A DNA stretch of 6,410 nucleotides, from IMG/VR virus record IMGVR_UViG_2671180892_000009, positions 1 to 6,410 of that record; one strand, 5' to 3'. How positions within the stretch are numbered: position 1 is the stretch's first letter; every line of letters begins with the position of its first letter. The notes below the pieces were generated by a model. It searched no databases. It was given only the letters and a program-made list of their open reading frames with translations, and was not told the origin of the DNA. Below are positions 1-6,410 of this stretch, piece after piece. Source of the DNA: a virus. Its lineage: Duplodnaviria; Heunggongvirae; Uroviricota; Caudoviricetes. The position numbers and the translations under genes are program-made.

Positions 1-582
1 TTACTCTGCAGGTGAAGTCGGCCACTCAATATCAGGTGCAGTTGATGTATCAACACGGTTCAGCAATACCCGATACTTCTTCCAGGCTTCCAGCAACGAG
101 GTTTCTTCCTCCGTTGCAATTTCCAGATCTGCAGCATCCTGAAGCGGCGCAATATGCTCACTGGCTACCTGCATCAGGCTTTTTTTTGTTTCTTCCGCCT
201 CCCGGATCCGGAACAGTTTTTCTGCTTCCGTATCCTTCACCCAGGCTGTGCCGTTCCACTTCTGATATTCCCCTCCCGGCGATAACCAGGTAAAATTTTC
301 CGGTAACGGACCGAGTTCAGAAATAAATAACGCGTCGCCGGAAGCCACGTCATAGACGGTTTTACCCCGATGGTCTTCAACGAGATGCCACGATGCCTCA
401 TCACTGTTGAAAACAGCCACAAAGCCAGCCGGAATATCTGGCGGTGCAATATCGGTACTGTTTGCTGGCAGACCTGTATGAGGCGGAATATATGCGTCAC
501 CTTCACCAATAAATTCATTAGTTCCGGCCAGCAGATTATAAATTTTTATGGTCCGTGGTTGTTCACTCATTCTGAATGCCAT
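1..582 (-). CDS. tfa: Tail fibre assembly protein (lambda Tfa family), 193 aa. The ATG at 580-582 overlaps the stop of the upstream tail-fibre fragment as TAATG; a second in-frame ATG lies at 568-570.
   Basis: Full-length ORF with its stop at 1-3. The translation ([51 protein letters not shown]...) matches the lambda/enterobacterial Tfa family as I remember it. It sits directly downstream of a tail-fibre C-terminal fragment, as in lambda stf-tfa. Confidence 0.85.
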
Positions 583-914
583 TATGCAAGCCTCACAATA
601 TAGTTAAATGCAATGTTTTTGACGGTGTTTTCCGCGTTACCCGCAGCGTTAACGGTGATGGTGTGTCCGTGTGAACCAATACTGAAAGAATGGGCATGAG
701 CACCGATAACAACCGGATGCTGGTGCGCACCAATACCAACTGTATGCGCATGTGCACCGGCACTCACGGCTGTACCGGACAATGAGTGACTGTGGCTGCC
801 CTGACTGTCCGTTTTCGATAAATAAGCAATACCCTGTGTGTTGGTTCCTTTAACTGTGGATAAACTTCCTGTATCAATGCTTAAATCAATGACAAGGTCA
901 GCAATCTGGTCCAA
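582..914 (-). pseudogene. Deletion-fusion remnant: about 16 residues resembling the tape-measure (gpH) N-terminus joined in frame to a His-box side-tail-fibre C-terminal tip domain, 110 codons. The only possible start is TTG at 912-914.
   Basis: The N-terminus [16 protein letters not shown] resembles lambda gpH MAEPVGDLVVDLSLD. The rest (SHSHS, GAHAHT, GAHQHP, GAHAHS, GSHGHT ... [11 protein letters not shown]) has the repeated GxHxH boxes typical of T4 gp37 / lambda Stf fibre tips. There is no internal Met; an in-frame stop lies two codons upstream of the TTG; a strong Shine-Dalgarno (GGGAGGAA) precedes the TTG. The open frame is intact, so it may still be translated. Confidence 0.65.
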
Positions 915-1227
915 ATCTCATTCCTCCCGATATACCTTCCCCCAGATGCATCAGCTCTTCATCCGTGCGTTCAGGGATCACCCTGTCATCCGTAACCAGA
1001 CTGAAATCATCCGCCGGAATACGTTCACCGGACACCATCTGAACCATCAGCGACTTCAGTGTGGAAATCTGTGCATCCAGCCAGATATCCCCGAAACTCT
1101 GCTTCCGGAAGAAATCCCCCCATTCGCCCAGTTCTGACGCTGACATTTCTGATAACATCCGCCGCCAGTCTGCCCGCCGGAACTCACGGGCAAGCTGCAT
1201 CACAAACTGCATCTCCCGCGTCAGGAC
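898..1227 (-). CDS. gpT-like frame, the -1 frame relative to G, expected to be expressed only as a G-T fusion by programmed -1 frameshifting. The frame is open from 1251; the first ATG is at 1210-1212.
   Basis: Position and frame match the lambda G/T arrangement: the frame is -1 relative to G, it opens 9 codons before the G stop, and it ends just inside the start of the gpH-like ORF. The protein sequence was not matched to lambda gpT from memory, so the call rests on synteny. Confidence 0.55.
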
Positions 1228-2417: not shown

Positions 2418-3026
2418 TTAATTTGTATATGTGATTTGATACGTGATTTCCGCCATCGCCCATGTTGCCATATCGTTATCACGCTGATAGTTAAATCCCC
2501 GTGGGATCATGGTATCGATAAGGCCGTAAAGCGCCGGAATATCCTCCAGTGCCGGGTAAATAATGTTGTCCATCCACGTATCCAGATCAGAATCCGGTGC
2601 CTGTGCGCGGATAAAGACGGCGACATGCAGAACTGCCAGCCAGTCATCCTCATCCGTCATTTTTCCGGTGTACTGTGCATCACTCAGCCACACCGCCACG
2701 GCAGGCAGCTCCTGCGCATCAATAAAGGCAGGAAGGCCGTCAAACAGGACGGTCTTCTCCCCGCACGTCGTTTTCAGGCGCGACAATACGGCCTGACGAA
2801 TTTGTGTGTGTCGGTTCATCGGGTCAGATATAACCTCAGTTGGTGTTTCAGGGCATACACCCAGCGCACTTTCCAGCTCTTCAATATACTGACGCAGTTC
2901 ACCAATTGTCGCCCGCGAATACTGAACCTGACGCCCGTCCTTGCTGACGGAAACCACAGCACGTCCGATCATCAGTTCATGTAACGCCCGGCGGGCATCG
3001 CATAGCATTTCATGCGTATAAATCAT
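2418..3026 (-). CDS. In-frame fusion ORF: gpW-like head-tail joining protein (about residues 1-57), a roughly 13-residue junction, then a complete gpU-like tail terminator starting at an internal Met at 2817-2819. Start at the ATG at 3024-3026; a GTG at 3027-3029 is also in frame.
   Basis: N-terminal part: ARRALHELMIGRAVVSVSKDGRQVQYSRATIGELRQYIEELE versus lambda gpW [42 protein letters not shown]. C-terminal part: MNRHTQIRQAVL...FDGLPAFIDAQELPAVAVWLSDAQYTG...IPALYGLIDTM...ITYQITY versus lambda gpU MKHTELRAAVL...FDGRPAVFDEADFPAVAVYLTGAEYTG...IPALSDLITSM...LTYVITY. Shine-Dalgarno GGAGGA 7 nt upstream of the ATG. Confidence 0.8.
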   Translation of the reverse strand: MIYTHEMLCDARRALHELMIGRAVVSVSKDGRQVQYSRATIGELRQYIEELESALGVCPETPTEVISDPMNRHTQIRQAVLSRLKTTCGEKTVLFDGLPAFIDAQELPAVAVWLSDAQYTGKMTDEDDWLAVLHVAVFIRAQAPDSDLDTWMDNIIYPALEDIPALYGLIDTMIPRGFNYQRDNDMATWAMAEITYQITYTN

Positions 3027-3029
3027 CAC

Positions 3030-4946
3030 TTATCCTCCACTCAGAGCAGCCGCGATTTCTTCAATAGTCATTTCATCGTCGTCCTGTTCATCTCTTCTGG
3101 CGCGGGCCAGTGCATCCAGATCCAGTTGCCACCGCTGAACGGAAATGCGCAGCGCTGCATAGGCATACACCAGACAGTCCAGAGCTTCATTACGCCGTTT
3201 TCTGGCATCCCACTGGAGTTTCACCCGCCCGTTCACAACTTTTTCAACCAGCTCTTCTGCCACGAGTTGTTTAGCTTCAACATCAGAAAAAATGTCCGGG
3301 TTATCCGGAAAACGGAAGGTATACGGTGCGACTTCACTGGCAGATACCACCGGCAGGGCAAAACGCGCATACAGCATTTCCTTGACGGTATCGGAACCCA
3401 CCTCACACAAAAACACCCCACGCTGGTTTCGCTTTTTTGGCATGGTGATCACCGGCTTGCCGTACACCGACGCCCCTTTGATGGGGAGCACAAAAAAAGT
3501 GCCGTGTTTTCTGGATCGCTGATACACAATGTCCTGGTCAATACCACCGGTATCCCAGCAGACGCGGGAAATGGAAATTTCAGTGCCATCTGCATGACGG
3601 TATTTTTTCCGGATCACGGCATCAACGCGTTTAAGGGTGTCCTCATCTTCCGGTCTCCCCATGATGATCTGCTTGTCAATCAGAAAAGCTTCTTCGCCAG
3701 GAGCCCAGCCCCAGACATAAATCTCATAACGGTTTTTCTGAGAGTCGATCCCTGCGGTCAGGTAAACCACCCGCAGGGGAACCTGCGCATCATAGTGGCA
3801 GACTTTTTCCAGCAATAACTCAAAGCTCAGTTTTTCTGCCACAGCCTCTTCATAAGGCTCCCCCAGCGTGGTGTTAATGAACGTCTTGACGCCATTCGGA
3901 TCCTTCAGTGCATCAAGCCAGTCATAAACAATCTGTACCCAGGTGGTGAACGGGCTGTATGCCGTCCAGATGTGGTACGAGATTGAGCGCGGTGGCGGGA
4001 TTTCCTCATCACCGGCGCTGTAAAATGTCAGACCGTCACGCGTCCACATCCCGGTATTGTCACAAATCCACCGCCCGTCGGTCTGGTCAAGTTCCGACTG
4101 ACGGATCGCGCAGCCATTATGTTCACACAGGTAATACACCGTCTCCGGCTTGCCCTTCTCCCATTTCAGGCCAAAGGTTGTCGCATCATCGCCAAACTTC
4201 AGATACTGGGCTTCACCACAATGAGGGCATGGCACATAAAACCGCATAAAATGTGCAGATTCGTTCGCGGCTTTTTCAATCTGGCAAAAACCTTTAATTT
4301 TGGGCGTTGAGCCGCGTATGGATTTAGGCCATACCGAACCTTCGATACGCTTATCGCCAAGCAGAGTTGGTGAACCTTCTTTTTCCACATCCGGTTCAAA
4401 CGAGGAGAGTTCGTCATAGCAGACCACATCCACAGATTTTTCACGGTAGTTTTTGGCAGCAGCTCCGCCCAGACACCAGAATCCCACACCGGAGGAGAAA
4501 CGTTTCAGGGTAAGCGTGTTGTCCCGATGTTTTCTGCCAAACCACGGAGCCAGCTCCAGTAATACAGGAACGTCTCTTATCGTTGGTTCGACATGGGATT
4601 TCATAAAATCTTCTGCCGCAGAATCTGTCGGCTGAAAAAGCAGGCTGTTACGGGATTTGTGTTCAATAAAATAAGCCTCCACCCCCAACAGCATTTTGGT
4701 GTAACCAACACGCGCCGATTTAATCAGATTAACGGTGCGGATCCGGTCATTCCCCATGCTGTTCATGATGGCAACCTGAAACGGCAGTGTTTCCCATTGC
4801 CCGGGAGTATATGAAGACTCTTTTGGCAGATAATAATGCTGATCAGCCCACTGAACTGTCGTCAGTGGTACCGGAATATTGAGAGATACAAGCCCTGTTG
4901 CTATCGCACCGGCTGCATTAGCTGCCTTCTGTGCGTCTGAAATCAT
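3030..4946 (-). CDS. A: Terminase large subunit gpA-like, about 638 aa. Start at the ATG at 4944-4946; a TTG at 4947-4949 is also in frame.
   Basis: Collinear similarity to lambda gpA over the whole length, for example [88 protein letters not shown] and [19 protein letters not shown]. Near-identical size to lambda gpA (641 aa). No internal stops. Confidence 0.95.
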
Positions 4947-5466
4947 CAATCCACCCGCCTACGTTCTCACCAGCTTTAGCTGCAACGTTGGAGGCTTTTG
5001 CGATTTCAGTTTTCACCACATCAAGGTGTGACGGTGAAATATCCGGATATTTACGCTGTAATGTCAGCGGCACACGTACAAGTATCCCCGAAATCTCCTG
5101 TGCCACACGTTGCAGAATGAAGGTAAACAATTCCGTTTCCAGTACCAGCCCTTCTTCGCGGGCATTTTTCAGTTCCTGTGCATCAGCCTGTGCTTTTGTG
5201 AGTCGGTAGCGCTCATAGTCAATGGTGCCGGGTTGTAAATCTGATTCCGCAGCCGCACGCAAATCCTCGGTCTCTTTGCGGAGTTTTTCGTTTTCAATAT
5301 CGGCTTCGCGCTGCGCATACCACTGAATTGCCATGGCGGTATCAAATACAGATTCAACCCCCTTACTACCACCAGAGACACAAGAGAGCCCCTGAGACTG
5401 CCAGCGTTCAATCGTTCGTGGATCCACGTTGAAAATTTCCGCGAGCTTCTTTTTATTAACCTTCAT
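4918..5466 (-). CDS. nu1: Terminase small subunit Nu1-like, 182 aa, with an N-terminal HTH DNA-binding domain. Start at the ATG at 5464-5466; the ORF track starts 6 codons upstream at 5484. The 3' end overlaps the start of A.
   Basis: [26 protein letters not shown]...[57 protein letters not shown] closely parallels lambda Nu1 (MEVNKKQLADIFGASIRTIQNWQEQG...[56 protein letters not shown]). Confidence 0.9.
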
Positions 5467-5490
5467 AAAACATTTCCATATCAAATGCAG

Positions 5491-5690
5491 GGTCCGACAT
5501 GGAAGTGCTCAAAAACGTCTTTTTCGGGCACTTTCATGTCGGACCTTTTACGGATGTGATTGATGAAAAAACAATGAGTTATACACGAGAAGTACCGACA
5601 CGCTTTTTCCCGAAAAATTTTCATAAATAGCGAAAATCCGCGCCGCTGCCGCCCCGTGGCAGACCACCCCACCGGAAGGACCCGTACAAA
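5491..5690 (-). other. Lambda-type cos site on the minus strand: cosQ-like element (about 5668-5686), cosN with a candidate 12-nt cohesive end GGGCGGCAGCGG (5643-5654), and cosB with candidate Nu1-binding repeats (18-bp inverted repeat arms at 5491-5508 and 5528-5545).
   Basis: The minus-strand sequence ACGGGTCCTTCCGGTG...GCCACG GGGCGGCAGCGG CGCGGATTTTCGCTATTTATGAAAATTTTTCGG aligns with the lambda right end / cos / left end as I remember it (ACGGGTCCTTTCCGGTG...GGTTACG GGGCGGCGACCT CGCGGGTTTTCGCTATTTATGAAAATTTTCCGG). The distance from cosN to the Nu1 start is about 180 bp, as in lambda. Confidence 0.75.
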
Positions 5691-5828
5691 TAGAGTTATT
5701 ATTAATTACATTTACAGTAGGAATGATGTACATCATTGAAACACCATTCAGTCATATACCGACAGCATTCGGTGTTGCACTTCATAACTCTGCGACTACG
5801 GTTATAAAAGCATTGGCTACTTTTGCCA

Positions 5829-5870
5829 CCGGCAAATCTTCAATGGATTTCCCCTGCCGGTTTTTTATTT
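5829..5870 (+). terminator. Weak terminator-like hairpin on the plus strand (CCGGCA...TGCCGG with an internal loop) followed by TTTTTTATTTT.
   Basis: Seen in sequence only. The stem is interrupted and the loop is long; no upstream plus-strand gene is evident in the window. Confidence 0.25.
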
Positions 5871-6008
5871 TCATCGATGCATAACATTGCTTTTACATCA
5901 ATAGCAGCTATTGTCAGTAGTATGTTGTATCGATGCATGGGTGGTATTGGCGATCTTCGCCGACCGGTTCTGTGTAGCTCCCTATGACCGGTTTTTTTAT
6001 TTCTAAGA

Positions 6009-6045
6009 TTATAGAAGTCCTTCACTGTATGAAGGACTTCTATAA
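6009..6045. repeat. Perfect 16-bp inverted repeat (TTATAGAAGTCCTTCA / TGAAGGACTTCTATAA) separated by 5 bp. Function unknown: a stable hairpin or a dimeric protein-binding site.
   Basis: Seen directly in sequence: 6009-6024 is the exact reverse complement of 6030-6045. It lies about 75 bp from the IS3 terminus in an AT-rich non-coding stretch. Confidence 0.6.
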
Positions 6046-6119
6046 CGCTTCTTACTTTGTAATTTTCGCACCTTCCGGTAATTCCATAGGTTAAAAAAAC
6101 CTCATAATCTCTGACAATT

Positions 6120-6410
6120 TGATCCTACCCACGTAATATGGACACAGGCCTAAGCGAGGTTCTGGTTTTCAAATTGTTCCGGACTGAGGCCGCCACACCA
6201 ACTGTGCCGCCGCCACCGATTGTAATCACATTCGATATAATTAAACACCGTTGCCCGCATTATTTCCCGGCTGATAAAGTGTTCTCCATGGATACATTCC
6301 ACTTTCAGCGAATGAAAGAAGCTTTCCACGCAGGCATTATCGTAGCAGCAACCTTTTGCGCTCATACTTCCACGCAGATTATGCCGTTTCTGTTGCGCCT
6401 GATAATCTGC
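6120..6410 (-). mobile_element. IS3 (IS3 family) insertion sequence, right-end portion, with the terminal inverted repeat beginning TGATCCTACCCACGTAATATGGACACAGGCC at 6120. The element continues beyond the window edge.
   Basis: The terminus starting with TGATCC matches the IS3 end sequence as I remember it, and the adjacent ORF encodes the C-terminus of the IS3 orfB transposase. Confidence 0.9.
6150..6410 (-). CDS. insF: IS3 transposase orfB (InsF-like), C-terminal 86 residues of the DDE catalytic domain. 5'-partial: the N-terminus lies beyond the window.
   Basis: The frame is open to the window edge. The translation [86 protein letters not shown] matches the IS3 InsF C-terminus with two substitutions relative to the copy I remember (L to Q, K to Q). 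Confidence 0.9.

Follow-up and report, generated by a model that had tools for sequence, protein, structure and literature searches.

A tape-measure/side-tail-fibre fusion open reading frame at the site of an 11,551-bp deletion in a defective lambda-like prophage of Escherichia coli

Introduction

The native fold of the phage fibre tip is an iron-bound, intertwined trimer. In the invertible segments of Mu (Gin), P1 (Cin) and e14 (Pin), the coding part for a fibre C-terminus is followed by a tfa-type gene. In Ur-lambda the side tail fibre Stf comprises 774 aa, corresponding to orf-401 and orf-314 of the sequenced phage, and its companion Tfa is encoded by orf-194; the stop codon of orf-314 and the start codon of orf-194 overlap by a single nucleotide at position 21973. 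Lambda stf is said to have been used in place of the T4 gp37 tip, reportedly by Montag et al. in 1989. For T4 gp37 the domain limits have been defined as a collar (residues 811–881 and 1010–1026), a stem (882–931 and 960–1009) and a tip subdomain (932–959). Its needle is six-stranded, each of three chains contributing one descending and one returning strand, and contains seven irons, each bound by an HxH motif from all three chains; essential residues have been reported in the first half of the tip, namely I933, N937, G938, G940, G942 and G943 (PMC6957217). Fibre and chaperone genes homologous to those of lambda are also left in decaying lambdoid prophages of K-12 (stfR-tfaR in Rac and stfQ-tfaQ in Qin), and lambda acquires DNA from both through stf-tfa homology (PMC3945230).

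Here we describe a related locus in a stretch of 6,410 nucleotides (hereafter, the window, to which positions refer unless stated otherwise), in which the start of a tape-measure gene, H, is joined in frame to the end of stf. Residues 16–110 of the fusion protein differ from lambda Stf by one residue, the tfa DNA is 99.4–99.6% identical to that of lambda and the stop/start overlap is the same; however, only the last 95 of the 774 fibre residues are present, behind a foreign N-terminus of 15 residues. The HxH iron-binding boxes and an identical C-terminal stretch of 11 residues are shared with the T4 gp37 tip (structure 2XGF), but the remnant corresponds to the returning strand only, with five boxes versus four in gp37, together with the equivalent of gp37 944–959. 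Unlike in Rac and Qin, only 95 codons of the fibre gene remain, placed directly behind the start of a tape-measure gene, and the prophage lies between potB and potC. The order of fibre end and tfa is that of the Mu, P1 and e14 segments, whereas an invertase gene, a recombination site and a second inverted fibre/tfa copy are all absent.

Results and discussion

Setting of the window within the prophage

The window is an end of E. coli contig LOPH01000003.1 (assembly GCA_001576105.1) and is the reverse complement of nucleotides 1–6,410 of L002. Loci are denoted L002 (the terminal LOPH01000003.1 stretch, in reversed orientation), L001 and L006 (ARS-C101), L007 (N61), and L003 and L004 (other copies of the remnant). 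The stretch is part of a lambda-like prophage and all of its genes lie on the minus strand. Read along that strand they are the end of an IS3 transposase (6150–6410), nu1 (4918–5484), terminase A (3030–4949), a W'-'U fusion (2418–3029), the major tail gene V (1667–2482), G (1221–1640), gene T for tail assembly protein T (898–1212), the H'-'stf fusion (582–914) and an intact gene for the tail fibre assembly chaperone, tfa (1–582). Gene T matches PF06223 (E = 1e-13) and carries the same name in the annotation of the relatives; its 3′ end holds the start signals of H. The product of tfa matches PF02413 (Caudo_TAP; E = 9e-44) across profile positions 1–131 and has 193 aa versus 194 in lambda. The last 19 nt of tfa (window 1–19) diverge from lambda and give a different C-terminal hexapeptide (...TSPAE); elsewhere the gene has 4 differences from lambda.

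The prophage is inserted between potB and potC, splitting the potABCD operon (L002 6643–7506; L007 21106–21969; L001 43476), and in ARS-C101 its integrase end abuts an intact potC. In the source contig, L003 and the intact relatives, potB is found 233 nt beyond tfa with its 3′ end towards that gene, followed by potA, pepT, roxA and phoQP. This is where the initial annotation had suggested that a serine invertase might lie. Neither an invertase gene beyond tfa nor a second inverted fibre/tfa copy is present in these same sequences, and no gix/cix-like site was found within 3 mismatches of the gix consensus. The resemblance of TTACAGGAAGTTTATCCA, at the fusion junction, to invertase half-sites is taken as coincidence because of this last result.

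Compared with N61, the prophage is a defective deletion remnant, collinear except for two internal deletions of 11,551 bp and 6,043 bp, and with the same IS3 and the same chromosomal site. The IS3-family element is located upstream of nu1 (about 6090–6410; L001 23296–24458). It occupies an identical site in the otherwise intact prophages of ARS-C101, VG35A2 and N61 (100% identity over 2855–6410), and the insertion is thus older than both deletions. The three assemblies of the remnant are all broken at this element or inside it.

Anatomy of the fusion open reading frame

The fusion ORF spans 110 codons (582–914, minus strand) and begins with TTG, which is the earliest possible start since an in-frame stop, TGA, lies at 920–918. 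This TTG had been described as the only start; it is indeed the first after the stop, but further in-frame start-type codons can be read inside the ORF (TTG at codon 45, GTG at codons 50 and 107). The ribosome-binding site of the tape-measure gene, GGGAGGAA (921–928, minus strand), is located within the 3′ end of T, and its GGAGG core ends 8 nt ahead of the TTG. The good spacing noted in the initial annotation is that native to H; the same sequence precedes the tape-measure start in the intact relatives.

The tape-measure (gpH-like) stub, as delimited by comparison with N61, consists of the TTG and the first 41 nt unique to H (874–914, minus strand). The first 44 nt of the fusion are those of the 1007-aa tape-measure genes of N61 (L007 8409–11432) and ARS-C101, which are likewise placed after T, and PGAP annotation of the relatives assigns the same TTG start to the gene, with a 17-nt overlap with T. 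Residues 1–15 are accordingly the first 15 residues of the 1007-aa protein; the remainder of the tape measure (all but 15/1007 residues) is absent. The gpH-like N-terminus recognised from sequence in the initial annotation is thus that of a real tape-measure gene. The N-terminus of lambda gpH itself is MAEPVGDLVVDLSLDA.

The fibre portion (585–870, minus strand) encodes residues 680–774 of the 774-aa side tail fibre, a segment that takes in the latter half of the tip subdomain, the returning strand of the needle, which bears five HxH boxes, and the final strand of the collar. Fusion residues 16–110 correspond to N61 Stf 680–774 with 100% nucleotide identity, and lambda differs by 1 nt (S to N), so that the in-frame fusion to the C-terminal end of stf is borne out. 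In order, this portion contains a 23-residue stretch, five GxHxH boxes at residues 39–84 (GSHSH, GAHAH, GAHQH, GAHAH and GSHGH) and the terminal 11 residues. The TAA stop (582–584, minus strand) shares base 582 with the tfa ATG (582–580), forming TAATG, an overlap already reported for this locus and identical to that between orf-314 and orf-194 of lambda. From its sequence, this overlap is predicted to make translation of tfa depend on the upstream ORF.

A consensus scan for sigma-70 promoters returned 7 sites against 6.4 expected, which is the chance level, with none near the fusion ORF. A terminator-like hairpin of 7 pairs, 6 of them G-C, is present between V and G (1648–1631, minus strand), where ACCCCGGTATGCCGGGGT is followed by a T run, TTTTTGTTT; the V-G gap in lambda is only 15 nt. 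Given this hairpin and the lack of a nearby promoter, expression would depend on anti-terminated late transcription from beyond the IS3. As the frame, start codon, ribosome-binding site and tfa coupling are preserved, the fusion could be translated if a transcript crosses the region.

Parent sequences, breakpoints and age

The two parts of the fusion have separate, intact parents. Window 871–1100 is 100% identical to T and the tape-measure start in 15 complete E. coli genomes, many of them from bovine isolates, and window 700–873 matches the lambda-type stf of K-12 lambda lysogens at 100% identity. Among 5,426 complete E. coli genomes, the halves match only separately and none contains them joined; a search with the junction 40-mer against one genome per species also gave 0 matches. 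More broadly, window 20–873 (854 bp) is 99.4–99.6% identical to lambda tfa and the end of stf, and window 20–731 is about 94% identical to many other lambdoid phages.

In the intact sister prophages of ARS-C101 and N61, the 1007-aa tape-measure gene is followed by M, L, K, I, J, lom, a 774-aa stf, tfa and potB. The N61 prophage is full length and adjoins potB. Between window position 873 and the stf stop at 582 it does not differ from the window; over a longer stretch, through tfa into potB, potA and pepT, N61 and the source contig are 99.9% identical. Both flanks are exactly matched by N61 and ARS-C101 over the stretches compared. When the fusion is set against both intact H and intact stf, the deletion junction falls at 871–873 (minus strand), where the 3-nt microhomology TAC (window 873–871) comprises the only bases in common at the breakpoint. 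In the fusion, AGCATTGATAC is joined to AGGAAGTTTATCC; in intact H, AGCATTGATAC continues with CGCCGAT, and in intact stf, CAACCATTAC continues with AGGAAGT. The sequence across the junction reads CTGTGGATAAACTTCCTGTATCAATGCTTAAATCAATGAC. The fusion was made by a microhomology-mediated illegitimate deletion that removed 11,551 bp present in N61. The initial annotation had anticipated a deletion joining H to roughly the last 90 codons of stf. The deletion retained 95, and the 774-aa stf of N61 is a full-length gene that carries the identical end.

The exact 110-aa protein was found on four contigs, from two NCBI assemblies and Logan read sets, and its database entry (KXR37136.1) names it 'hypothetical protein AUQ22_00825'. 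L003 and L004 share both deletions and the IS3 with the window, from which their sequences depart at 0–2 positions, all of them synonymous sites within tfa; the two differences, both synonymous, are those seen between L003 and the window. The remnant has zero substitutions against its N61 parent, from which we conclude that the deletion is recent.

These comparisons dispose of a further set of readings, in which the ORF would be a fibre gene that is natively short, a chimera created in assembly or one arm of a fibre segment inverted by a Pin/Gin/Cin-type system: nothing favours them except that the ORF is small and adjoins tfa, and we consider them refuted, their probability being negligible, by intact parents with identical flanks over the compared stretches, 11,551 bp apart, by the same junction in independent assemblies and read sets (L002, L003 and L004), and by the presence of potB rather than an invertase after tfa with no gix/cix-like site.

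Structural mapping of the fibre remnant

Lambda Stf was aligned to the T4 gp37 tip structure 2XGF, which covers gp37 residues 785–1026, with E = 3.7e-73. The 110-aa fusion protein alone aligned with E = 1e-18, its residues 33–110 falling on chain residues 174–242 (gp37 958–1026). An alignment to Stf/gp37 C-termini had been proposed as a check on the fibre part, and the score points to homology with gp37 far beyond chance. In the alignment of lambda Stf with 2XGF, the junction pair T679 and G680 lies opposite about G943 and N944 of gp37, in the middle of the tip subdomain.

Intact Stf contains eight HxH boxes, of which three are in the descending strand (residues 599–659) and five in the returning strand (703–748). 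The remnant keeps 5/8, all from the returning strand. A complete hairpin is absent, as the remnant lacks the opening half of the tip, the descending strand of the needle and its 3/8 boxes, and all of the collar but its last strand. Stf residues 1–679 are deleted, and with them the N-terminal attachment and shaft part; the intact 774-aa protein is annotated as 'prophage tail fiber N-terminal domain-containing protein'. Judged by this mapping, the remnant is the returning half of the hairpin and not an intact receptor-binding tip. The proposal that the deletion had kept the receptor-binding tip is hence not upheld: the breakpoint, near gp37 943/944, bisects the tip subdomain (932–959) and leaves the specificity region incomplete.

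A second in-frame fusion

A second fusion is encoded at 2418–3029 (minus strand), with its junction near 2855–2858. It comprises the first ~57 codons of the head-tail joining gene W and the complete U, connected by a 12-codon linker, read in the U frame, that stems from the 3′ terminus of the gene preceding U. From lambda gene order, this gene upstream of U is probably the equivalent of lambda Z. Relative to N61 the deletion amounts to 6,043 bp, occurred at a GTAT microhomology, and took the portal, protease, decoration, capsid, FI and FII genes together with most of the gene upstream of U. This deletion and the upstream IS3 fit a decaying prophage. Both deletions are in frame, with a joint prior of about 1 in 9, which gives a faint hint of selection against polarity.

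Origin and fate of the fusion

In our assessment the ORF is very probably a recent, non-functional fusion pseudogene, the scar left when one illegitimate deletion took 11,551 bp out of a lambda-like prophage that is decaying. The deletion extended from codon 16 of H to codon 679 of stf, taking out the body of H and 88% of stf along with M, L, K, I, J and lom between them, and joining the ends at TAC. Because the left breakpoint falls just inside H, the fusion inherits the native TTG and the ribosome-binding site in the end of T, and because the right breakpoint falls inside stf, the one-base overlap with tfa is likewise the native one. Preservation of the frame would be due to chance, the prior for one deletion being 1 in 3. 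If translated, the product would comprise only the returning His-box needle strand and about half of the tip subdomain. Without a descending strand, full collar, shaft and tail-attachment domain it could not build or decorate a fibre, and we infer that it is non-functional and that its frame is accidental.

The initial annotation had instead regarded the fusion and tfa as a retained, expressible receptor-binding cassette that passes host-range determinants to incoming phages by recombination, which we consider improbable. Recombination as such is plausible, given that lambda recombines with the stf-tfa homology of the defective prophages Rac and Qin (PMC3945230), and the homology on offer is extensive, both to lambda (window 20–873) and to many other lambdoid phages (20–731); the translation signals, frame and tfa overlap are also intact. 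The difficulty lies on the left side, where the specificity region is cut and only 41 nt of H and gene T remain upstream of the half-tip. With no homology upstream of the specificity region, the remnant is ill suited to donating a new host range. If the left crossover fell outside the variable part, the phage would be expected to take up the 11.5-kb deletion and be killed by it, and phages that match only 20–731 are without left homology for the unique part, 732–873. Only tfa and the returning strand, which is conserved, would then be open to donation by double crossover; the special donor role suggested for the cassette is not sustained. No promoter was found, moreover, and the fusion is rare and recent.

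A more restricted function may be imagined, in which the fusion is kept for coupled translation of tfa and the 95-residue strand and Tfa act as a standing recombination or complementation resource for superinfecting phages. We hold this to be quite improbable; its users, if it were true, would be lambda- or T-even-type phages that share the conserved His-box and 11-residue C-terminal sequences and tfa. Selection of the in-frame state to keep tfa translated by coupling, with Tfa as a domesticated chaperone that aids superinfecting phages or serves a host function, is in our view very improbable. That tfa is full length with a strong Pfam match, that the TAATG overlap ties its translation to the upstream ORF and that both fusions of the window are in frame would be accommodated by such selection; the joint prior of 1 in 9 is, however, unremarkable, and the remnant, being unchanged from its parent, offers no substitutions from which selection could be gauged. 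The differences between L003 and the window are synonymous, but number only two, and no transcription signal was found.

The fusion is an ordinary scar of small overall importance. It nonetheless offers a clean and datable case of prophage decay in which microhomology-mediated deletions can leave translatable chimeric ORFs, and it cautions against assuming a complete receptor-binding module wherever an ORF with a 'His-box tip' adjoins tfa. The label of KXR37136.1 should be tape-measure/side-tail-fibre fusion pseudogene, not hypothetical protein.

Other features of the prophage

The intact N61 prophage is a mosaic. From M through tfa it is 94.5% identical to lambda over 9.4 kb (L007 11507–20854 versus lambda 13175–22535), with the stf end and tfa about 99.5% identical, and blastn of N61 G, T and H gave no match to lambda. 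The immunity region of the intact relative is of the dicA/dicB (Qin-like) type.

A cos-like region is present in the window at about 5567–5686 (minus strand), with 76% identity to lambda cos over 122 nt (GGGCGGCAGCGG versus GGGCGGCGACCT in lambda). This region and intact nu1 and A are still present although the portal and capsid genes are gone. Just upstream of nu1 there is a 25-nt inverted repeat that is 88% complementary (5491–5545). At 6009–6045 two 16-bp arms form a perfect inverted repeat around a 5-nt loop, and similarity to several related prophages stops around it, at 6025, 6048 and 6088.
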